From Squalus acanthias (Eukaryota), in the NCBI GenBank assembly GCA_030390025.1, contig CM059432.1, positions 91,638,001-91,702,000 of the forward strand: a stretch of 64,000 nucleotides of DNA, read 5' to 3'. A program made the translations under genes and the position numbers. Of this stretch, positions 24,618-59,884 are shown in pieces (the first letter of the stretch is position 1; the number at the start of each line of letters is the position of its first letter). A model generated the notes under the pieces. The model searched no databases. It saw only the letters and a program-made list of their open reading frames with translations, and was not told the DNA's origin.

Positions 24618-25097
24618 GTAGAGACACAATTCGCAGAGAGCAGCAAGAGGGATTCAGAAATGTTTTACAACTATATTAATCAGGCAGGTCCATATAAAGG
24701 ATAAAATGGATAAAACTATATAATTCACCCAGCATGCTCCTTGGAGATTAACCTCTCTAACCCCTCTCATCCTCTCTTACCTTTTCCACTGCACCCTCTA
24801 ATCCTACAAGTGGATTTTTTTTTTAAATCACCATCCTTCTCCGCATTGCTACCTTGAGAATATTCGTTCTCTTGCAAATTCATGGCCTCATTATGGATGA
24901 ATCCATTGTCATCCTGACACTGACAGATACTTGGCTTACAGGAAGCAACTCCATCCCCCTCACTAAAGCTTCCTCACCTGGCTACAGGTTTCATCTCTTG
25001 CTCCACCCAAACTGCCGTAGTGGTGTTGTGGCTCTGATCATCAAACCCCACCTTGGTCTCTCCCCCTACTTCACTGTCACTTTTTTCTTTGAGTACC

Positions 25098-26794
25098 TGT
25101 AGAATTCGCAATATATCGCGATTTTATTAATAAGGAGAAAACACAAAGTTTCGTTCAAACAGCTTTTATTTCAGTAGAATGCTGGCAGGTTTAAAGTGGA
25201 CACAAGCAGCCTGTAAAATGGCCGCCGCACCTCGTGACAGAACATTCTAGACTTTTCAACAGGCAGACAAGATGGCGTTCCAATAAACATTTGTGCAAGA
25301 TCGATTAAGATTCAGCACAGTGAAGATAATACACGAGACATTATGGGTTTGCAGTATACACATAGATACTGAAATCGGTCTCCCAGGTACAAAGGAAGGC
25401 CATTGTACCGAGTAATCAAGGGCCCATCCAAAAGACATTAATATGTAAAATCCCAACGACTCTACGATGAGAGAGCCGTTAGCAGGTAGTTATACAGGAC
25501 ACTTGGAAGCCCCAAACCCCTCCAGGGAGAACACCGACCGATTTAACAATGGGAGAAATATTAACAGGTACTCAGACATTTACGAGTAGCCCCGAAACCC
25601 ATTAAGAACGGAGATCACCCATACAAGACATTTGAGCGCCAGACCTTAAACAAAAGAATGGACATTATAGTTGGGCGGGAAACGGAAGATTTTGCACTAT
25701 AATTGCAGGCTCCAAACCGTCCAGCTTTCTCTTGCTCCTGTGCTTTTATCCGGTCGATTCGTAACCTCGTGGCTGCTCCTGTGTACTCGTAGTTGGGCTC
25801 GCTCCTGCTTGCCTGTTGCCTCTTCTGAAAAGACTGTTGAACTTTCTGATCCGTTCGGATCTACCTCGTGTCGCGTAACGAAGACCTATGTTGGTAACTG
25901 GCAGCGGAACCGAAGGCCCGAGATGAGATAAGATGAGATGAGATGAGAAGAGAGGAAGACCATATCCATCGCCACGGTCAGTAAATCCCGACCGCGCCTG
26001 TAGGTCGATTAGCCAAGTTTTCCTCGCCAGGAAGACTTCTTCGAACTTATAACGAAACATATTGCATCGAAGATAACTGGACTGTGCCCAAAGTAACTGG
26101 AACGTGAAAACATATCGTATCGACGATATTGACAACTGTGCTCGAAGAGTACCTGTTAAACCAACCAACACAGGTCTTCATCACAGCAGACGGTCCAGCC
26201 TGCTAGCCGGAGCAGCAGAAGCAAGTAAACAAGTGGGACCAGGAGATCTCCTGACCGACACGTGGGTGCTGCGGTGAAAAACATCCGATCAGCTATTCGG
26301 AATTTCTCCGAGTTATCACGAGTGGTGAGCATGAGTCTCGAAATCCTACGAATCTAGTTTAGGATAGATATTGATAGGGGAGGGTTTAAGGATTAAGGAT
26401 ATTTGTAATGTGTGCCCCTATTTACTTTGTGCCGTTCGTTCCTCGTTTCCCTAAGATCGACTATATAACTGTTTTGTAAGATTGTACTGTCATTAATCTG
26501 TGCTTATGACATGTATTTCATAATCTTAAGTAACATGCAATAAAGATTTTCCATTTCGTACCATTCAAACCAAGTCTACATGAGTTTTATCTCCATTACT
26601 GCTCTCGCATCTAAGTCCAGTGTCTAGAACCGTAAGGGAGAGTGATTCGAACCACTCACAGGTGTGTCTAGTGTTCCCAGACTGGCTGGAGACCAGAACA
26701 GGCAGCAAGGCCTAGACCCGCACTGACATACAGGCTGCACAGAGCCGCGTGAATCTCACAGGCCACGAGACACGCAGGGTCAGAATCCCTTACA
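25098..26794 (+). repeat. 5' LTR (1697 bp), TG...CA
   Basis: TGTAG...CTTACA termini; AATAAA at 26539-26544; followed 5 nt later by a PBS; boundaries coincide with the related solo LTR at 52529-54205. Confidence 0.92.
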
Positions 26795-26799
26795 GAAAA

Positions 26800-26817
26800 T
26801 GGCGACCGCGGCAGGAC
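26800..26817 (+). promoter_or_regulatory. Primer-binding site, tRNA-Arg(UCG)-type
   Basis: TGGCGACCGCGGCAGGAC is the 18-nt reverse complement of ...GTCCTGCCGCGGTCG-CCA, the 3' end of a vertebrate tRNA-Arg-TCG (recalled, not searched). Confidence 0.85.
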
Positions 26818-26852
26818 ACTGGCAGCGAGAGGGTAGTGTGTTAGATTTTGGA

Positions 26853-28610
26853 ATGACTGTACGAAATGTTATGCAGGAAAAGATAGCGGATTATGTGTTT
26901 GGAAAGGTTAATCTAACTAAGAAATGGATAAGTGAATTGTTAGCGGATAAGAGCCCACTAGAGGCAGCTGAAAGGTGGACAGATAGTAAAGAACATAGAA
27001 AGACACTTGAGAAAGCAGTCTAGCTTATGTGTTACAAAAGGCAGGTTCAGATTTCAAACCAGACCATTACAGCGCTAGTAGCTCGAATCAGTCATTTAGA
27101 GGGAGAAATGGAGGAGAAGGTTTCTGGAGGGGAGGTGCTCATTAAGAATTTAAATGAGTTACACCAAGAAAGCCAGGAAGTCTCCAGTCACCTTAAAACA
27201 AGGATAGATTATCTCGAGTGCCAGGTCACTGAGGCAAAATTGAATGAGAGCAGGTTAAAGGAAAGATTTAACCGCCAAGCTGCCCAGATAAGAACTCAAG
27301 AAGAAAGCTTGATGGGGGTTAGGGCGGCATATAAGTTGGCCCTTGAGGATAAGTTTCAGGGAGCCGATCATAGCGCCTGCCAAAGGGAGATAGAGCACCT
27401 CAAAAAGGCCGTGAACAACGCGAACGGCATGGTGTGCCTTATCAATCTGTCGGCGCACCAGCCGCTAGTAAATGAGAGATTTAGAAAATCCCCACCAAAT
27501 AAAGCAGAAGAAGTAGTAGCCACTGCGCCCTCCGCGCCACCCAGCTATTCAGAAACCTGGGTTAGGGAGGAAGCAATGGAAGAAACAAAAGAGCCCATTG
27601 AAAAAGAAGTAGGAAAGGGATCGTTATATCCAGTAACGGGTATTAAAAGGGGCCCAAGCAGAAACGGTGGGGAAGAACCGGGGGATCTCCTCGGACAGCT
27701 GGTGTTGCCTCACAGTTCACATCAGCTGAGAGCTATGATAAATCACGTACGGAAGCTGACCGAGGCAGACGACCCTTCCGTACATTTCAGAGAAGTTGAG
27801 CAAGCCGCAGCCATTAACGGCTGCGATGATGGGGAAACAGCAAAAATGCTGCTGTTCTCATTAGACAGCTCGGTCCTTCAGTGTCTCTCAGGCGAGAGCA
27901 AGAGGGGAACCAAGAGTTATGAGGAATTAAAGAATGAGGTCCTAGAAGTGTTGGGGGCGAACGACGAAGGTCCGTTTGCTAGAGTGGGACAGACAGTGCA
28001 GATGGAGGGAGAACCCCCGAAGGTTTTTGCCGACAGGCTGTGGCCAGTATATGAGCGCAGCTGTCTAGGTGCGCCCGAGCGCGAAGATGTGGAAGGTTTA
28101 GCTTTAACTCATTGGCTTAGGTGCATAATAGCCAACAGTTTACCAGCCGTCAGAGAGCAGGCAAAAGCATGGTTTGATCCCAATGACCCCAACATTACGG
28201 AAGAGTCGGTCTTGAATCGACTCACGTTAGGTTATCGCAATATAAGGGGTATGGCAACACGTCCCCTTAAGGGAAGAGTACATGAGGTACGACCCGCAGC
28301 CCCGTATCAAAGAGAGTGGCATCAGGAGGGTAATCGCGCCCCACAGGCAAGTAATGCTTGTTACGGGTGTGGGAAGACAGGGCACTGGCGCAAGCATTGC
28401 AGGAACCCTTGGAAGGATTCCAAGAATAAAAATCCCGCGGTCCGAGCCCAGGCGCCTGTCCCGGCTAAGGAAGCCAAGGCACCCACCCCTCCCGACGACC
28501 TCGAAGCAGTGTTAGGAGCCATGCGCAAGCTGGTCCTGAATGCGCGTGGACAGGTGGCGGTCGCAACCGGCCCCGTAGGTGCCGCAGGACCGTCTAATAG
28601 TACCCAATGA
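26853..28610 (+). pseudogene. gag: Gag-like protein: N-terminal coiled coil, PSAPPSY late domain, capsid-like region, CCHC zinc knuckle; one in-frame TAG at 27021-27023
   Basis: The 74-aa ORF (26799-27023) and the 527-aa ORF (27027-28610) are in the same frame, separated by a single TAG (probably TGG>TAG); CYGCGKTGHWRKHC at 28359-28400; PSAPPSY at 27528-27548. Confidence 0.85.
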
Positions 28611-29771
28611 CTAGAGCCCACGCAGTCTGCCTACCTGTGTCCTTTTAAAAGACACGCACAGGAGGGGGTCTGCGGTGAGGAGGCCAGGTTAAAAGAGCAG
28701 GCCTTGCGGGAGGAGAACGCCCGCTTAATAGGGAAAATAGATAGGCTGGAAGGGCAGCTTAGAGAGCAGGCCCTGCGGGAGGAGAACGCCCGATCAATGG
28801 GAAAGTTAGACGTGCTCAGGCTAGAAGCGCAGCTTAGTGAGATAAAAGCAGCCTACAGGGTAGCCAAGAGCCGGGAGTATGAGGATGCAAACCAGTGCAA
28901 ACTGTACAAGCCAGGTGCGCAAGGGAAAACCACAGGGGTAAATCCCGCCAATGGGAAAGCACAGCCCCAGGTAGGACCACAAGGCACACAGGCAGGCATA
29001 GCAGCTTGCATCAGGGGAAGGGACATCCCGGACGATCATGCAGCGTTTTTCTGGAATTGGGGGTTAGATGAGGAAGAATTCAGGGTACCCGGGTCAGATG
29101 AGGATAGTGCAGATGAGGATAGTGATGACGACGGGTGGTTTCGGAGGAACGGTCCCTTTTACGATATGGAGGGGACGGGGGCTGCAGGTAGAGATCCACA
29201 CAGGGTGGACACACGAGCTGCAGGTCCCGAAGACAGGAGGGAGGAGCTAGAGGAGGCAGGGCCAGCCGCTATGGGAGCACAGAGAGTACCGGTGTGGCTC
29301 CCAGAGATGTGGCCGCCCGCTTTGAACGTCCAGTCCTCAGGGGAGGCAGAGATCACGAGTGAAGGGCCGCCTGCTGGGCCGAGCAGGGCGGAGCCACGAA
29401 CTGCCAGCCCCGAGGTTAGGGAGGCGGAGTCAGCGGAGGCGGAGCCAGCGACTGTGATGGAACCCCAGGTCATCCCGATGGAAGTCTCGGAACCCGGTCC
29501 GTCCGTCACGGAAACCCCGCCCATGGCAACTCCCCGTAGGTCAAGTAGAGAACCCCAGCCCAGGAGGATGTGGTCATGTCCCCAGACTGCCCCAAGGCGA
29601 AAATTTAAGGTTAAGATAACCCAGATACAGACCGGCCACATCGCAGCAGTAACAGGCTGCGGCAGATCAGAGGGAAGGGTCAGCGCAGCAACAGGCTGCG
29701 GCAGATCAGAGGGAAGGGTCAGTGCCCTCCCACCGTCGGGAAGAGCTCGCAGCAGCCTTCTCAGAATTTAA
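28611..29771 (+). CDS. Unknown ORF in the pol position, in frame with gag behind a TGA-CTAG stop (coiled coil, acidic, Pro/Glu-rich, basic tail)
   Basis: Open from 28611 to TAA 29769-29771 in the gag frame; no recognisable protease DTG, RT (Y/F)xDD or integrase HHCC/DDE motif. Confidence 0.6.
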   Translation, partial: LEPTQSAYLCPFKRHAQEGVCGEEARLKEQALREENARLIGKIDRLEGQLREQALREENARSMGKLDVLRLEAQLSEIKAAYRVAKSREYEDANQCKLYKPGAQGKTTGVNPANGKAQPQVGPQGTQAGIAACIRGRDIPDDHAAFFWNWGLDEEEFRVPGSDEDSADEDSDDDGWFRRNGPFYDMEGTGAAGRDPHRVDTRAAGPEDRREELEEAGPAAMGAQRVPVWLPEMWPPALNVQSSGEAEITSEGPPAGPSRAEPRTASPEVREAESAEAEPATVMEPQVIPMEVSEPGPSVTETPPMATPRRSSREPQPRRMWSCPQTAPRRKFKVKITQIQTGHIAAVTGCGRSEGRVSAATGCGRSEGRVSALPPSGRARSSLLRI

Positions 29772-30083
29772 AGGGGCCGCCCTGAGAACGGGCGGCACTG
29801 TATAGTAAGTAGTAATAAGTTTTAAGTTTATAGTTCAAGGTTAAGTTTTAAGTTTATAGTTCAAGGTTAAGTTTATAGTTTTATTAAGGTTAAGTTTGTA
29901 GTGTTTTTAACAGAAAACGATAAAATGATGGGAGCTTTAAAGATAGGTTTAGTTGAAGTTTATTCAGCGAACGTTGAAGTTTACGTGAGGCGAGGTCAGG
30001 GGACCCGCTCACCCTTCACAAAAGCCAGAGACTCTTGCGAGGCTGGCTACCTCATTCTATCTGATCACAGGAACCAAGGAAGG

Positions 30084-31214
30084 ATGGAACGAATTCTAGT
30101 ACTGCTCGCGGCAATCGGATGTGGATTGGCCTATCGAGGCCGCACCAAGGATGTCGTGGTGTTTGGATGTTCCGGGGACACGGCCCCCATCGCGGTGGAT
30201 GGGACCGGAAGACGGGAGGCAGAGGAGACCAGCACCTATTTCCACAAGGGAAGGTGGCCAGGATGGCTGGGAACGAACTCAACGGAGTATTCCAGCACAT
30301 CGGGGTTTGCCTACAAAGAGACTTCTTTACTGTGCCCCAAAGTAAGGATCATCGCACCCAGGATCAGCGTCACCGTCGGCAAACGGATTTGTTTGACTTG
30401 TAGTGGGAAGGTCCCATTGAGCCGATGGTGGTGGCTGCGAAAGCTGAGCAAAACTATGAGGAACTCTTCGGTCGAGTGGGAACGACTGGGTAATAATACC
30501 CATCGGACAATTACGGGGACAGACGGACAAGTGAAAGTCTGTTGGGACAAATGGTGGGAACCGGATGAGGGAATTTATGTATGTATGTGGGGGTCAAGGT
30601 ACGTTTGCCCCAAAGGCATCTCCATATTTTTTATTAATCAATGGCAGGATAACGGACAGGGGATGAGGTGGGATGCGAGCACCAGGGGGTGCGGAGCCCC
30701 ATTCTCCCCGATCCCAGTAAATGCCACTGAGCTCATTACGCGCCCACGCAAAGCCCCGCCCACGATTCCGGTGGTTCTAGCTGAGGAAGAAGGGTGCCCT
30801 AAAACTAGTAAGGGACCCGGGAATGGTTTGGTACTGGTCCCCACAGACCAGATACTATTTCAGGGGGTACATTACGCGGTGGCCTCGGTGATTTTAAATC
30901 TCACTGAGGTGCGGTTACCAGAGTGGTGCCCCAAAAAGACGGAACAGTTGTATCAGGTCCTGTTGACCAAGATGTTCAGACAATTTTACGAATTCGATTT
31001 CGCGGAAATTGATAAAACAAGTTTCTACACCGCACCACAGGAAGTTTTGGATCAAGTAGGGAGGCAAAGAAGGGGTTTGGTGAACGATGCGTTCACTGCT
31101 TTTAACACAGGTCTTCATCACAGCAGACGGTCCAGCCTGCTAGCCGAAGCAGCAGAAGCAAGTAAACAAGTGGGACCAGGAGATCTCCTGACCGACACGT
31201 GGGTGCTGCGGTGA
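30084..31214 (+). pseudogene. env: Env-like glycoprotein: signal peptide, Ig-like domain, F2-like region, furin site RQRR, start of fusion peptide; truncated by a deletion at ~31104
   Basis: MERILVLLAAIGCGLA signal peptide; VTVGKRICLTC...W...DEGIYVC Ig signature; five N-glycosylation sequons; RQRR/GLVNDAFTAFNTG at 31062-31112; candidate acceptor ...ctatctgatcacAG at 30070. Confidence 0.75.
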
Positions 31215-31730
31215 AAAACATCCGATCAGCTATTCGGAATTTCTCCGAGTTATCACGAGTGGTGAGCATGAGTCTCGAAATCCTACGAATCTAGTTTAGG
31301 ATAGATATTGATAGGGGAGGGTTTAAGGATTAAGGATATTTGTAATGTGTGCCCCTATTTATTTTGTGCCGTTCGTTCCTCGTTTCCCTAAGATCGACTA
31401 TATAACTGTTTGTAAGATTGTACTGTCATTAATCTGTGCTTATGACATGTATTTCATAATCTTAAGTAACATGCAATAAAGATTTTCCATTTCGTACCAT
31501 TCAAACCAAGTCTACATGAGTTTTATCTCCATTACTGCTCTCGCATCTAAGTCCAGTGTCTAGAACCGTAAGGGAGAGTGATTCGAACCACTCACAGGTG
31601 TGTCTAGTGTTCCCAGACTGGCTGGAGACCAGAACAGGCAGCAAGGCCTAGACCCGCACTGACATACAGGCTGCACAGAGCCGCGTGAATCTCACAGGCC
31701 ACGAGACACGCAGGGTCAGAATCCCTTACA
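31104..31730 (+). repeat. Partial 3' LTR (R-U5 part; equals 26167-26794) followed by a second PBS copy (31736-31753)
   Basis: Near-identical to the 3' 628 bp of the 5' LTR; joined to env at AACACAGG. Confidence 0.92.
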
Positions 31731-31759
31731 GAAAATGGCGACCGCGGCAGGACATTTTC

Positions 31760-33455
31760 TGTAAGGGATTCTGACCCTGCGTGTCTCGTGGCCTGTGAGA
31801 TTCACGCGGCTCTGTGCAGCCTGTATGTCAGTGCGGGTCTAGGCCTTGCTGCCTGTTCTGGTCTCCAGCCAGTCTGGGAACACTAGACACACCTGTGAGT
31901 GGTTCGAATCACTCTCCCTTACGGTTCTAGACACTGGACTTAGATGCGAGAGCAGTAATGGAGATAAAACTCATGTAGACTTGGTTTGAATGGTACGAAA
32001 TGGAAAATCTTTATTGCATGTTACTTAAGATTATGAAATACATGTCATAAGCACAGATTAATGACAGTACAATCTTACAAACAGTTATATAGTCGATCTT
32101 AGGGAAACGAGGAACGAACGGCACAAAATAAATAGGGGCACACATTACAAATATCCTTAATCCTTAAACCCTCCCCTATCAATATCTATCCTAAACTAGA
32201 TTCGTAGGATTTCGAGACTCATGCTCACCACTCGTGATAACTCGGAGAAATTCCGAATAGCTGATCGGATGTTTTTCACCGCAGCACCCACGTGTCGGTC
32301 AGGAGATCTCCTGGTCCCACTTGTTTACTTGCTTCTGCTGCTCCGGCTAGCAGGCTGGACCGTCTGCTGTGATGAAGACCTGTGTTGGTTGGTTTAACAG
32401 GTACTCTTCGAGCACAGTTGTCAATATCGTCGATACGATATGTTTTCACGTTCCAGTTACTTTGGGCACAGTCCAGTTATCATCGATGCAATATGTTTCG
32501 TTATAAGTTCGAAGAAGTCTTCCTGGCGAGGAAAACTTGGCTAATCGACCTACAGGCGCGGTCGGGATTTACTGACCGTGGCGATGGATATGGTCTTCCT
32601 CTCTTCTCATCTCATCTCATCTTATCTCATCTCGGGCCTTCGGTTCCGCTGCCAGTTACCAACATAGGTCTTCGTTACGCGACACGAGGTAGATCCGAAC
32701 GGATCAGAAAGTTCAACAGTCTTTTCAGAAGAGGCAACAGGCAAGCAGGAGCGAGCCCAACTACGAGTACACAGGAGCAGCCACGAGGTTACGAATCGAC
32801 CGGATAAAAGCACAGGAGCAAGAGAAAGCTGGACGGTTTGGAGCCTGCAATTATAGTGCAAAATCTTCCGTTTCCCGCCCAACTATAATGTCCATTCTTT
32901 TGTTTAAGGTCTGGCGCTCAAATGTCTTGTATGGGTGATCTCCGTTCTTAATGGGTTTCGGGGCTACTCGTAAATGTCTGAGTACCTGTTAATATTTCTC
33001 CCATTGTTAAATCGGTCGGTGTTCTCCCTGGAGGGGTTTGGGGCTTCCAAGTGTCCTGTATAACTACCTGCTAACGGCTCTCTCATCGTAGAGTCGTTGG
33101 GATTTTACATATTAATGTCTTTTGGATGGGCCCTTGATTACTCGGTACAATGGCCTTCCTTTGTACCTGGGAGACCGATTTCAGTATCTATGTGTATACT
33201 GCAAACCCATAATGTCTTGTGTATTATCTTCACTGTGCTGAATCTTAATCGATCTTGCACAAATGTTTATTGGAACGCCATCTTGTCTGCCTGTTGAAAA
33301 GTCTAGAATGTTCTGTCACGAGGTGCGGCGGCCATTTTACAGGCTGCTTGTGTCCACTTTAAACCTGCCAGCATTCTACTGAAATAAAAGCTGTTTGAAC
33401 GAAACTTTGTGTTTTCTCCTTATTAATAAAATCGCGATATATTGCGAATTCTACA
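31760..33455 (-). repeat. Full-length inverted LTR copy (1696 bp)
   Basis: Reverse complement of 25098-26794 with only a few substitutions and one indel (e.g. antisense ORF SSYLR vs SSYHR; THNVS vs THNVL). Confidence 0.93.
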
Positions 33456-35308
33456 TACCTCAACCTCTCCCATCCTCTCACTTAAACTACTTGTGGTGCA
33501 TGGTCCTCCAAAGCTGCACACTAACTTCCTCACCGAGATCTCCTCATGAACCCTCTACACCAAGCAACTTCTCAATGTCAGTGATACAACCTATACCCAA
33601 ACTCCCCCAGCCCTCTCACATCTAACTTCTCTGCCTTACTACCTTTACTTAATCTCACCCTTCACATAAACTCTCAGCCACACCCATGGTCATTCCCTTG
33701 ACCTCACCATCACTTACAATCTCTCCACTTCCTCATCTTGCTTATCACCTCCATTGCCTTCCCCCAATCCTGGAAAGAACTCTTCCCCAGTTCCCGCAAT
33801 AATTCACTGTCAAATCCCAACTTCCTGCACCCACAACACATCTGTAAAAAACGTTTAGTCATAGCAAATGGGACTCATTGATGCATGACATATACAGAAG
33901 TTAATGAAGAAATTGGAAGGAATAAATATCGACAAGAGTCCTGGGCCAGATGGGATGCATACATGCTAGAATCCTCAAAGAATTAAAGATGGAAATTAGA
34001 GATGCTTTGCTTAATGTTTTTAGAGCTCCATAAATACGAGATAAGCACTTGAGGATTGATGTGTTGAGGGTTGGAGGATACAAATGTAATTCTAATGAAT
34101 AAGCTACAAACATGACAATTACAGACCAATTAGCCTAGCACAGAAGGAGAAATGCTTTGAGGCATTCCAAATTATGCCATTAATGAAGATTTAAAGAATA
34201 CAAATATCATAGGAAGCAGCCAGCATGAAGTTAGATGTAATAAGACATGCCTTTAAAACTTACTGGGATTCATTGAGGGGGTAATAAACTATTGGACATG
34301 GATAATCCAGTCAATGTACTTTTCAAAACAGGAACGAGCTTGGTTATGATGCTTCCTATGTTTGAATAGCCAGCTGACATTCACTATCATGAATCACACA
34401 TGAAGAATGGCCAATTGAGTAAGGTAATGGATGACTATTAGCACCAACCAGTTGGAGTCAATACTTCAGATTTCTACAGGAAACACCTGAATTTTGCCCA
34501 GTATGAACAATTTTAAGTATGAATGTACTTATTTCTTCTTTTAAACAAAAAACATTTTTATGGTTCTTCCATCTGCACACAGAGTGAAATAACTATTGCT
34601 GGGAATTTCCTCAGGGGTTGCACCAATTGTCCATTAAAAATTCAGTGGAAGATCAGCAGAAACTCTGGCTAAACAATATAAATGGCGCCCAATCGGGAGA
34701 ACCCCCCAAGGAAATTCCTGATGATGTGCTGTAACTTTTGAGTACAGTATTTTTTTGTTTATTTTAAATTGTACATACCTACCAACCAAATGTTAACTGT
34801 GCATCTGATCTCTGGTGATCTAGCGAGGGTTGCATTGGTAAATGTTTGGCAAATCATTGTGGTAAATGAAGATAAGGAGGTTTGCATTTCTCACTGGCCT
34901 AGATAGACTTCAGCCAGATGTTGATCGTCATCATGTTAGAGCTATATGTAGCTTTAATCATCTGCCATTTTCTAGCTGGTTTCTTTTTAAAAATAATATC
35001 AGATTGTGATGAAGATAAAAAAAGAGTGCTTTGATTTGTTGTGAACTACTGTAAAATCTGATATAAGTGTAGATTCACACAGCCCCTGAACCTTTTGTTG
35101 TCCTGCAATAAAGCTGCTGTAGTGAAGTCAAAACTCAAGAGGCAGAACATCAGTACTGCACCGACTTTGTAAAATATATTGACAGTTGGATGGTTGGTAT
35201 TATTGACCTAACAGTTCCAATAATAAATGTTGCAAGTCAAGTAGTGAACCTATAAATAATTAACTTACATTTAACAGTAAGTAGAGAAACACATTGTTTT
35301 CCACTTAC

Positions 35309-52097: not shown

Positions 52098-55000
52098 GGG
52101 GGAGAAATTCATTATAGCCCAGGAATGGGCGTTAACTTTTGAAAAGGTTGAGAATTAGCACCAGACGCTAATGCTTCAGACTGCATGCAAAATTTAGTCT
52201 CATTGTACAAAGAAAGGATTGGAGCGCTAAATTAAGCGCTAATGGCCTAGCTCAGAGGTGTTAAACTCGAAGCGCTGACCAATATCAGGTGCAGTCTAAA
52301 CATAAGTCATCATTGCCACAGGCTCTTCCCAGTTCTTAAAAGGGGAGGATCATTGATGCTGCAGAACCTCATTCTCATCATTGCTGGCTGTGCAGCCATC
52401 TCAACCAGCCGCAGCAGGTCAAGGAGAAGGAGTCGGATGACTCAAGCAGCCGTAATGATGGCAAATCCACGCCCCTGGGAGAGAGCGTGCAGATTCTGCG
52501 ACCATGCATTGGAGGCATTGGTGATCGTTGTAGAAATCACAATATTATCGCGATTTTATAAATAAGGAGGAGACACATAGTTTCGTACAAACAGCTTTAT
52601 TTCAGCAGAATACTGTCAGGTTTTCAAAGTGGACACAAGCAGCCTGTAAAATAGCCGCCACGCCTCGTGGCAGAATGTTCTAGACTTTTCAATAAGCAGA
52701 CAAGATGGCGTTCCAATAAACATTTGTGCGAGATCGTACAAGACTCAGCACATTTGAGATAATTCACAAGACATAATGGGTTTGCATTTTACACATAAAT
52801 ACTGGAATCGGTCTCCCAGGTGCGAATAAGGGCTATTGTACCGAGCGATCAAGAACCCATCCAAAGACATTAATATGCAAAATCCCCACGACTCTACGAT
52901 GAGAGAGCCGTTTGCGGGTAGTTACAGAAACATTTGGAAGCCCCAAAACCCCTCCAGGGAGAATACTGACCGGTTACACAATGGGAGAAGTATTAACGGG
53001 TACTCAAGCAGTTACAAGTATCACCGAAACCCATTAAACGGAGATCACCCTATACAAGAAGTTTGAGCGCCAAAACCCTGACAAAAGAAAAGACATTAAG
53101 ATTGGGCGGGAAAAGAGGAATTGCAGCACTATAACTGTAAGGTACAACCGTCCATCTGTCTCTTGCCGCTTGCTCTTGCTCTTGCCGCTTGATCTTGACT
53201 CTTAGATCCTGACTCTTGCTGCTCGACTTGCTGGAAGACTATTGAACTTTCTGATCCGCCAGGATCAACCTCGTGGCTTGCCGCGAAGATCTGTGTAGAA
53301 CTGGGCTGTGAAGCCTTGAAAGGGCACACCATCCCGAGAAGTCGGTAAACGGTGTTGGAACCGAAGGCCCGAGATGAGATGAGATGAGATGAGAAGAGAA
53401 GAGAAGACGACCATACGTATCGCCATGGTCAGTAAGCCCCGACCGCGCCTGTAGGTCGAATAAACACTTTCCTTGCCCAGGAAGGCTATTCTTTGAGTTT
53501 TACAAACTGGCGTGAGGGCACAGGAAGACCATTCTTCGAGTTTTATCGCATCGGTGCGAGGGCACAGGAAGACTATTTTTCGAGTCGTGTCGGAACTCCG
53601 AGGACAACACAGATCTTCATGACAGCAGACGGTCCAGCCTGCTAGCCGGAGCAGAAACGAGTAAACAAGTGGGGTACAGAGACCCCTGATCAACACATGG
53701 GCGGGCAGGTGCTGCGGTAAAAACATCCGAGCAGAGTTTCGGAATTCTCCGAGGTTATCACGAGTGGTGAGCATGAGTCTCGATCCTACAAAATCTAGTT
53801 TAGGTCAGGTATTGATAGGGGAGGGTTTAAGTTTTAAGGATAATTGTAATGTGTGCCCCCTTTTACGATGTGTCGTGCGCTCCTCGTTTCCCTAAAATTA
53901 GTTACATAACTGCGTGTAAGATTGTACTGTCATTAATCTGTGCTTATGACATGTATTTCGTAATCTTGAATAATATGCAATAAAGATTTTCCATTTCGCT
54001 CTATTCAACCGGGTCTACCTGAGTTTTCTCTGCATTATTGCTCTCGCACCCAAGTCCAGTGTCAGAACCGTAAGGGCGAGTGGGTCGAACCACTCACAGG
54101 TGTCTAGTGTTACCAGGCTGGCTGGAGACCAGAACAGGCAACAAGGCCTAACCTCGCACTAGCACCCAGGCTAAGCACAGAGCCACAGGCGTGTCACCCC
54201 TTACATCGTGGTGGAAAGATGGTGGGCGGTGCTCAACCTGGCAAGTAGCAGGAGGCCCTCGCCGCAAGCCTTCCGCACCATGTGAAGGGAGGTAGCCCAG
54301 CATGTCTCTGGCAGCACCGTGGTCCCCAGGACCCCCACACAGTGCAGAAAGAAATTTAACAACCTCACATGGGTGGTCAGGGTGAGTCAATGCTTCAACA
54401 AATGCTGCATACCACCATTTGAAACAGAGTCTGAACACACTGCAGAAAGCACCACACTCCCAGCACTCACCCACCAACAATCTCTGCCTACCAACACTCA
54501 CATCTTAAACCTTGCACACAATGACAGCTATTCAACTATGGCAGGCACATCACCCAAACACATTCCTCCACACTCACTAATACACTTTCCTTTCTCTTGC
54601 AGGCCAAGGTGGCTCACAACAGGAGGGAGCAGGAGCTCACAGGCGGGGTACAAGCCGACATCCAACCACTGTCTGAGCTAGAGAATCGAGTGCTGCAGAT
54701 TATTTGGGCGCCATGGCCACCGGCGACATTGACCCCCTTGGGGACAACAACCGTATGTTCATCCCTACTCCTTCCTCTCACATCCCACTTCCCCCCTCAT
54801 CCCACAAGCCTTTCGCACTTTCCAGCTAATCATGCTGTATGCATGCATTTCTCCTTTCCTGCCCCCCCCTCCACTCACCTTAACCCAAATCTTATGCCTT
54901 TATGCTTTCAGATAATGAGCAAGCACCTGAGCAGCCTGTCCCTGAGGGCACCGTTGAGAGCGAGGCAGGAGAAGAGAAGGAGGAAGAAGACACCGCGTCA

Positions 55001-58118: not shown

Positions 58119-58443
58119 TGATGCGGAGGTGCCGACGTTGGACTGGGGTGGACAAAAATGAGAAGTCGCACAACACCAGGTTATAGTCCAACAGATTTAT
58201 TTAAAATTACAAGCTTTCGGAGCTATTGATCGTCCCTTCTTCAGGTAAAGTTACTAAGAGTGAATCTACAAAAATTCACAGAATATAAACAGAGAAAATG
58301 CAGAGATACAGTGTTTATATTCTGTGAATTTTTGTAGATTCACTCTTAGTAACTTTACCTGAAGAAGGGGCGATCAATAGCTCCGAAAGCTTGTAATTTT
58401 AAATAAATCTGTTGGACTATAACCTGGTGTTGTGCGACTTCTC
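58119..58443. mobile_element. Palindromic Penelope-derived non-autonomous element with hammerhead motifs in both arms
   Basis: 134-bp arms (58158-58291 / 58312-58445) with a 20-nt loop; 12-bp TSD ATGAAAGCTTAA (58107-58118 / 58444-58455) in a decayed CR1. Confidence 0.8.
58355..58396 (+). ncRNA. Minimal hammerhead ribozyme motif
   Basis: TTAC-CTGAAGA-AGGGGCGATCAATAGCTCC-GAAAGCTT-GTAA: core boxes, stem I TTAC/GTAA, palindromic AAGCTT; mirror copy on minus at ~58207-58248. Confidence 0.72.
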
Positions 58444-59884
58444 ATGAAAGCTTAAGGCAGTGGACATCCCAGATAAAACTCACAGGTGTGTAAGGAATTA
58501 TTTAAAAGAAAGCAAGCAGTGGATACCAATTAGGGGCAGATTGATGTTGGGGAGGAGAGATGGACTGCCCCAGGGATGGATGCTGGGGCCCCTACTAATT
58601 CTGATTTACATAAATAATTTGCATACAGTAATGCAAAATAAATTGGTCAAATTCCACAGCAGATACTAGACTAAGGGGGTAAGTGGGTAGTAGTGTCTGA
58701 CAAAAAGACCTACACAATAATTTACATGGGTAGAACTATTGCAGATGAAGTAAAATACAGATAAATGCATGGTCTTTCTCATAAGAAAAAAATGGGGTGC
58801 ATTTGTAATAAATAAAGTCAAACTAGCTGAGGAAGAGAGGATGAAAGAAAGATGAGAGAGTAGACTCAACACTGACCATGTTCAGTCATTTCAGAGCAGC
58901 AATTAACAAAGCAAATAGAATGCTGAGCACCCAATAGCGGAGTTAGCCCTTATAAATCTGAAACAAGTGTGCTGAAGCTCTCTAGTGCTCTGGTCAGCCT
59001 GCATCTGGATTCAGCTCTCGTCTGAGGCACTATGGAAACATCCAAGCCCTGGAAGTGATAGAAAGAAGGGCCACAAGGGTCAGAGGACTAAGGAAAGTTT
59101 ATAATAACTTGGACTCTTCAATCTTGAAATGAGGTGACTGAGAGGGGGTCTTATACAGGTATCTTATATACTATGTGGAATAGAAGAGGTTAATCCGAAG
59201 CATTATTTCAACTTAAAGCCCAATTGCAAGACAAGTGATAATATGTACAAACAGGTAAAAAGGTGGACAGCTTATAAAGAGGAGAATGGGGCAGATAGAA
59301 AAAAAAATGGTTTGAGAGTGGATGGAGGACAGGAGATGATTAAATGACAGAAGAAGTGATAATGGTGTTACAAAAGGAAGCAATAGTGAGAGAAATTAGA
59401 GAAATAAAAGTTGTATCTACGACTCAGAGGAGGTGTAAATGGTTACAACAGAATAGCGGAGGGAGAGGGAAGCATGGAAAATTTGGCAAAGTGGAGAAGG
59501 CTCCAATGGCCCAGGAGTATGGTGGAAGAATAAGGCTGGTAACACCAGGGTTGCAGACCCCCAAAGATAGAGGATGGTCATGTTTTCTCATGGATACAGC
59601 TATGTTTTTAACCTTCCTACTCATGAAACAGCCACCAGTGTAAATGGGCTGGGATGAGTGTGCTTCATGAATAGGGGATTGCACCTCCAAAGAGTTAGAT
59701 CGAGATTCTGGCTGGGATTTTCTACTTTGGCAGAATTCCGATGCAACTTTGGTAGGGTGACCTGCCGCTGACCGAGTTTTCCAAGGTTTAGATTCATAGA
59801 CAATTTTTGCATGCTCCCCCTGGGACTTGCACCTTGGTTGAGGAGCCCATCTCAGAGTAGGAAGGGAATTGTATCTGACTTTTG

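Follow-up and report, generated by a model that had tools for sequence, protein, structure and literature searches.

How can a provirus come to meet its host with two U3 ends? The locus that raises this question lies in a 64,000-nt stretch of Squalus acanthias DNA (contig CM059432.1, positions 91,638,001 to 91,702,000; here called the window), in which a first-pass annotation had described an 8,358-bp provirus ending in a full inverted LTR, joined tail-to-tail and bounded by a TACC TSD. This structure is real, and the sequence confirms it: the element occupies 25098–33455 (8,358 bp), carries the 4-bp TSD TACC on either side and reads, in order, LTR (copy A), GAAAA, PBS, interior, partial LTR (copy B), GAAAA, PBS, A, TTTTC and inverted LTR (copy C) (Table 1). 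The local chance of a 4-mer match on both flanks is about 0.006. The TG...CA termini with a short TSD are those of an integrase-made provirus and a tRNA-Arg(TCG) PBS follows the 5′ LTR as in a normal one, but both host junctions are U3 ends, where one U3 and one U5 are expected. The interior between the PBS and copy B spans 4.3 kb and holds gag-like, intermediate and env-like ORFs, and the arms of the palindrome, 634 nt each, are separated by 15 nt. The LTRs are about 0.2% apart, copy A differing from C at four places and from B at three, and B from C at one.

Table 1. Features of the element and its flanks, numbered from the first nucleotide of the window
Feature	Position	Strand	Remarks
Left TSD	25094–25097		TACC
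Full 5′ LTR (copy A)	25098–26794	+	1,697 bp, TG...CA; the same CA ends normal copies
GAAAA spacer and PBS	26795–26817	+	PBS at 26800–26817, complementary to the last 18 nt of tRNA-Arg(TCG), CCA included
gag-like ORF	27024–28610	+	Coiled coil; weak CCHC zinc-knuckle match, below cut-off
Intermediate ORF	28611–29771	+	Spans the spot where the pol-less class is without pol
env-like ORF, 5′ half	29871–31112	+	Broken soon after the RQRR site
Microhomology	31104–31112	+	8–9 nt, AACACAGG(T), common to env and LTR nt 1070
Partial LTR (copy B)	31104–31730	+	LTR nt 1070–1697
Tail-to-tail junction	31731–31759	+	Two unprocessed U5 ends: GAAAA (31731–31735), 18-nt PBS (31736–31753), A (31754), TTTTC (31755–31759)
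Full inverted LTR (copy C)	31760–33455	-	Right terminus is its U3 end
Right TSD	33456–33459		TACC; contigs of three runs stop matching the window exactly here

Both flanks of the element appear to resemble a LINE endonuclease; a search of the fetched loci for a paralogue of the flanks, as a check on their continuity, found none. Elsewhere in the window, a solo LTR of a diverged subfamily (77–84% identity, TSD TCGT) lies 19 kb from the element at 52529–54205, presumably within a Harbinger-type DNA transposon, and an inverted repeat unrelated to the LTR occupies 58158–58445, with 134-nt arms that are 99% complementary and 20 nt apart.

The family to which the element belongs is large. The 3.7-Gb genome contains 2,932 matches to the LTR end followed by the PBS (at most one mismatch), and very young copies of the family number in the thousands; they fall into at least two size classes, one with pol and one without, and tandem arrays are frequent. 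Among 12 relatives picked by equal PBS–env spacing, 11 have direct LTRs and a PPT ending 2 bases before the 3′ LTR, and the remaining one shows a single LTR within the stretch fetched. Of the 18 TSD pairs found, around elements or solo LTRs, 14 are 4 bp long. A relative with pol codes for PR, RT, tether, RNase H, an rve integrase and Integrase_H2C2; its RT matches Ty3, gammaretroviral and foamy RT in the PDB about equally well. A part of the relative's env scores 0.94 in Atlas language-model features to Fusion_gly clusters (Mononegavirales F, PF00523), whereas the family's env yields no Fusion_gly match in Pfam or the PDB and the cleavage site in the element reads RQRR against the lokiretroviral RXKR. 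Judged by its sequences, the family appears lokiretrovirus-like.

The junction between copies B and C records the state of the ends that were joined. GAAAA lies between the LTR end and the PBS in every normal copy inspected, so that only the retention of the following T is new information at the junction; because GAAAA never trails the integrated 3′ ends of inspected relatives, the fused ends must have been unprocessed, as the annotation had supposed and as two further junctions of this kind (below) bear out. Unprocessed ends of the family thus carry the 5-nt spacer plus T at U5, versus 2 nt at U3. The annotation had also read the PBS insert as a copy of the tRNA primer, and this reading is supported: the PBS complements the 3′ end of tRNA-Arg(TCG) plus CCA, the next upstream tRNA base is A58 (one tRNA gene read), and the copy stops at the base preceding A58.

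The base that follows this copy is less simple. Faithful read-through past the PBS predicts T, and the junction has A. An A also follows the PBS in the element's own leader (26818) and at 25 other loci inspected, and CA/TG gives the palindrome arms an overlap of 1–2 nt, so that the insert reads as either 18 or 19 nt. The 18 PBS bases claimed earlier are therefore all present, but the ambiguous A takes away the claimed exactness. The terminal A said to be retained from the tRNA is likewise in place, but it equals the next genomic base; besides being a ribonucleotide left over from the tRNA, it could have been misinserted, added without a template or taken from genomic sequence. The PBS contains the self-complementary CCGCGG, and a join made through it was ruled out, the junction being asymmetric. 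Separately, long tandem arrays with a 1,623-bp period at C26:40.5–41.9 Mb carry the tRNA-Arg(TCG) 3′ motif, and tRNA-Arg and tRNA-Ser genes were confirmed at two loci near them.

A second lesion, beyond those in the annotation, lies at the left edge of copy B, where env jumps into LTR nt 1070 through 8–9 nt of microhomology. Compared with a relative (L070), the element lacks 1,785 bp of interior, including the PPT, together with LTR nt 1–1069, and no PPT motif occurs anywhere in it, whereas a normal provirus has one before the 3′ LTR. The env–LTR junction at 31104 is unique in the genome (1 match, against 1,913 for the env motif), and the microhomology is present in intact env: of 30 relatives, 23 have at least 8 exact bases (8 of them have 9) and the other 7 have one mismatch. 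Loss of the PPT and of the U3 part of the right LTR would explain why a primer copy was kept at the right end. Within the LTR, similarity between diverged subfamilies resumes at nt 1066–1078 (window 26163–26175), approximately where copy B begins; judged from the sequence, this may be the U3/R boundary. TATA-like words occur at LTR nt 601, 951 and 1365.

How often do such fusions occur? The exact junction has 1 genome match against 2,932 LTR–PBS matches and 11 of the 12 size-matched relatives are normal, which rules out the inverted form as a systematic trait of the family, a possibility for which the annotation had proposed a genome search. A relaxed pattern returned four loci, one of them (C1:49559531) dropped as neither side matches the LTR, and a second pattern returned the same three; because the patterns are limited to junctions of at most 30 nt with near-exact ends, three is a lower bound. 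On both sides of each of the three, GAAAA is still followed by the first PBS base (T). They differ in the PBS remnant, which measures 18 nt in the element, about 7 nt with one mismatch and an extra A on C12, and 5–6 nt on C1147; in two of the three, the A beside TTTTC also equals the next base on the PBS side, as pairing over 1–2 nt would allow. The C12 junction (C12:18979051) lies in an LTR-only tail-to-tail dimer (C12:18977419–18980728) with two U3 ends and the TSD CACA, a 3.3-kb near-perfect palindrome whose arms differ at 2 bases and by one microsatellite unit. At C1147:1636, a tandem array closes with an LTR that has a PPT before it, and this LTR is fused to an extra full inverted LTR, the far end of which lies outside the contig; the count is therefore two TSD-bearing loci and a probable third. 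C1147 itself is an unplaced contig consisting almost wholly of a head-to-tail provirus array that ends in the U5–U5 junction.

No further stop at 18 nt was seen among 30 inspected of the 125 LTR–PBS matches with a next base other than A, all 30 running on into the leader. A search for an unprocessed U5 joined to other DNA gave 19 matches: 7 PBS variants, 3 on two of the known junction loci, 1 without an LTR, 1 internal inversion and 7 LTR ends with GAAAA and non-viral DNA, the last being compatible with chance. The mirror form with two U5 termini was not found, and the sole U3–U3 junction lies inside a rearranged copy with normal ends. This copy, at C16:73337855–73352221, has the TSD GTCT and an inverted full LTR directly after the PPT; its head-to-head U3–U3 junction keeps three of four unprocessed bases and is autointegration-like. 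At C1:75042114, LTR nt 1207–1697 plus GAAAAT is joined to an inverted piece of a diverged-subfamily LTR that starts at nt 1208.

The structure is best read as a rare accident of reverse transcription and integration, one that has happened repeatedly, though at low frequency, in a very young family; with 3 junctions against 2,932 LTR–PBS matches, it is not a new replication strategy. We consider it very probable that ends were fused from pre-integration DNA and that two U3 ends were inserted in concert. At two loci the termini stop exactly at CA and the TSD is 4 bp long, which points to concerted integration of two U3 ends, as the annotation had proposed, rather than to host insertion of one end or to double insertion: both outer ends of the element are processed U3 ends and its TSD has the length typical of the family. 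Two-donor integration with U3 ends is known to occur in vitro.

A path to this outcome can be proposed in four steps. First, as the element shows, one minus strand skipped from LTR nt 1070 to env at the microhomology and so came to lack both the PPT and the attachment end of U3. Second, plus-strand strong-stop DNA made on a second RNA could have moved to the PBS of the mutant strand and been extended to its end. By the standard scheme of retroviral reverse transcription, a minus strand without a PPT has no plus strand of its own to trigger primer removal, so that tRNA-Arg would still have been attached when the incoming strand arrived and 18 nt would have been copied, up to A58. Third, the resulting right end, with its CA 23 nt inside a single-stranded tail, would have been a poor substrate for integrase. 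Fourth, a second cDNA, either an LTR-length duplex or a longer molecule later collapsed to one LTR by recombination between direct repeats, may have brought another U3 end. Integrase would have inserted the two U3 ends in concert, giving the 4-bp TSD observed, and host end joining would have linked the unprocessed U5 ends to each other, whether ahead of strand transfer or following it. The enzymes would have acted in trans, this size class being without pol. Variable trimming is typical of end joining, and the variable PBS remnants together with the extra base fit that route for the U5–U5 join. We regard the full path, with intermolecular joining of the U5 ends, as evenly poised between right and wrong.

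The strongest competitor keeps the two U3 ends and makes the fusion in cis. Here the 3′ tail of the plus strand (PBS and A) would have paired with the TG of its own PBS, or been ligated to its own minus strand; copy B would then have been copied, followed by a switch to a full LTR template or by collapse of a full palindrome between B′ and A′, before integrase used both U3 ends. The LTR alleles bear on this. Copy A has C at LTR nt 1328 and copies B and C have T, at a position that is polymorphic in the family (C in 12 and T in 16 of 28 close relatives) and at which the LTRs of one element agree in 7 of 7 sets; copies A and C, for their part, share a U3 haplotype present in only 3 of 28 other close LTRs. 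If only two RNAs took part, the split at nt 1328 would point to C having been copied from B, or to later conversion, and one shared site can be explained by conversion within the 634-bp palindrome. The CA/TG overlap at the junction, and an A/T overlap at that on C1147, also agree with folding back, but priming would have rested on just 1–2 bp, and no fold stands out in the PBS tail by itself (z -0.8). A stop at A58 would not predict the shorter PBS remnants or the extra A on C12, and the extra LTR on C1147 differs from its neighbour at nt 50 while agreeing with other LTRs of the array, a weak indication at a contig end. A single site such as nt 1328 cannot decide between end joining and snap-back, so the annotation's joining of two right ends holds for their unprocessed state and less firmly for their descent from separate molecules. 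We rate a fold-back origin as possible but rather unlikely.

An artefact of assembly or of fold-back reads is improbable. Long palindromes are a recognized artefact of long-read data, and when 4 of 23 listed runs were compared with window positions 31715–33800, none of the 24 read pieces inspected (of about 17,000) crossed the PBS junction. Three DNA runs from two samples instead yielded a contig of 2.4–2.8 kb that matches 33456–33800 without a difference and continues for 469–503 letters that do not fit the LTR. This overrun is about as long as the stretch that separates the left junction from the nearest repeat edge beyond it, at 24618, so that the contigs of both samples probably represent the empty site, and the insertion is probably polymorphic, in line with the closeness of its LTRs. 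The one raw RNA run had no match to 31715–33800. A fold-back read would mirror env rather than add LTR nt 1–1069 and a new TSD-bearing junction between U3 and host; in addition, the LTR copies differ from one another, and the C12 locus repeats the same design with a TSD of its own.

Two routes that start from integration itself fare worse. Two insertions in opposite orientation at one site, one of them a tandem array with an internal LTR–PBS, followed by deletions, would draw on the tandem arrays common in the family and on the agreement of the post-PBS A with the genomic leader, and double insertion does yield inverted LTR tandems according to the accessible text of PMC5932611. However, that process leaves the target site in the junction, as described there, where the element has GAAAA and the PBS. 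All three breakpoints fall at GAAAA-T on both sides, among 40 candidates scored, copy A finds its best full-length match in C and C in A, and the env–LTR deletion has no second copy in the genome; such a route is highly improbable. So, to the same degree, is a one-ended route in which integrase inserted only the left U3 end, while a host polymerase started from the faulty right end and copied the 5′ LTR, the product being joined to host DNA, for although priming from an unintegrated 3′ end on either viral strand at short homology is described in the available part of PMC5041404, that route produces host deletions or duplications, whereas the element and the C12 dimer end exactly at CA with a 4-bp TSD, and copy C has the nt-1328 allele of B and not that of A.

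Two TSD-bearing loci and a probable third are evidence from within a genome that two U3 ends suffice for a retrovirus-like integrase to carry concerted integration through, and that right ends left unprocessed persist and become fused. The junctions thus record the end chemistry of a family known from genome copies alone. Such copies escape LTR finders that require direct repeats, and they leave palindromes of 1.3–3.3 kb in the germ line. A bolder and unlikely extension is that the family makes free LTR-length double-stranded cDNA, strong-stop DNA turned duplex, that integrase uses, and that germ-line intasomes pair U3 ends belonging to different molecules. On that view, the C12 dimer would have been built from LTR-only cDNAs and some solo LTRs would have been born solo and not by recombination, biasing the solo-to-full ratios by which element removal is gauged.

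Each part of the proposed path can be set beside a known system. In the accessible text of Joseph et al. 2022 (PMC9278108), HIV-1 proviruses with asymmetric LTRs keep the 5′ LTR intact and, as in the element, have a deletion that extends upstream from the 3′ LTR; they are proposed to arise from a deleted minus strand and strong-stop DNA of a second RNA. Unlike those proviruses, which have a processed U5 at the host junction, the element has its PBS-bearing right end, with an unprocessed and internal U5, fused to an inverted LTR, and its right terminus is a second U3. HIV-1 2-LTR circle junctions, as far as the available text of PMC5618025 describes them, likewise join unprocessed cDNA ends by host repair and carry primer-derived bases, including PBS inserts and the retained last tRNA ribonucleotide (rA); those circles join U5 to U3 and are unintegrated, whereas the element joins U5 to U5 and is an integrated, TSD-flanked product. 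Aberrant one-ended integrations (PMC5041404, in part) also bring into the genome a cDNA with an end that integrase cannot use, but host enzymes insert that end with host rearrangements, whereas both host junctions of the element look integrase-made. Drosophila inverted tandem LTR elements, attributed to double insertion in the consulted portion of PMC5932611, share inverted LTR–LTR junctions fixed in a genome, although theirs hold a target-site motif and the element's holds GAAAA-PBS-A-TTTTC; Supplemental Table S2 of that paper catalogues inverted LTR junctions and may bear on novelty.

The parent family appears to have its nearest likeness in the Lokiretroviruses (PMC7947760), whose RT is placed as sister to sampled retroviruses, and BHIKHARI (bioRxiv 10.1101/2024.03.25.586437), which, in the text available, share gag and pol with tether and RNase H; by language-model features, the C-terminal half of the family's env resembles Mononegavirales F. 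The host repeats look like those of a cartilaginous fish; cartilaginous fish are not among the lokiretrovirus hosts named in the accessible part of PMC7947760. The inverted end belongs to rare copies and not to the parent family as such. Inverted terminal repeats with an internal partial repeat recall DIRS elements at first sight, but those elements use a tyrosine recombinase, whereas the family combines direct LTRs and TSDs of 4 bp with an rve integrase. In the literature searched, whose coverage stops short of most subscription papers and supplements, no provirus with two U3 termini is described; the two-U3 provirus is unreported there, though each step of its making has a known counterpart.
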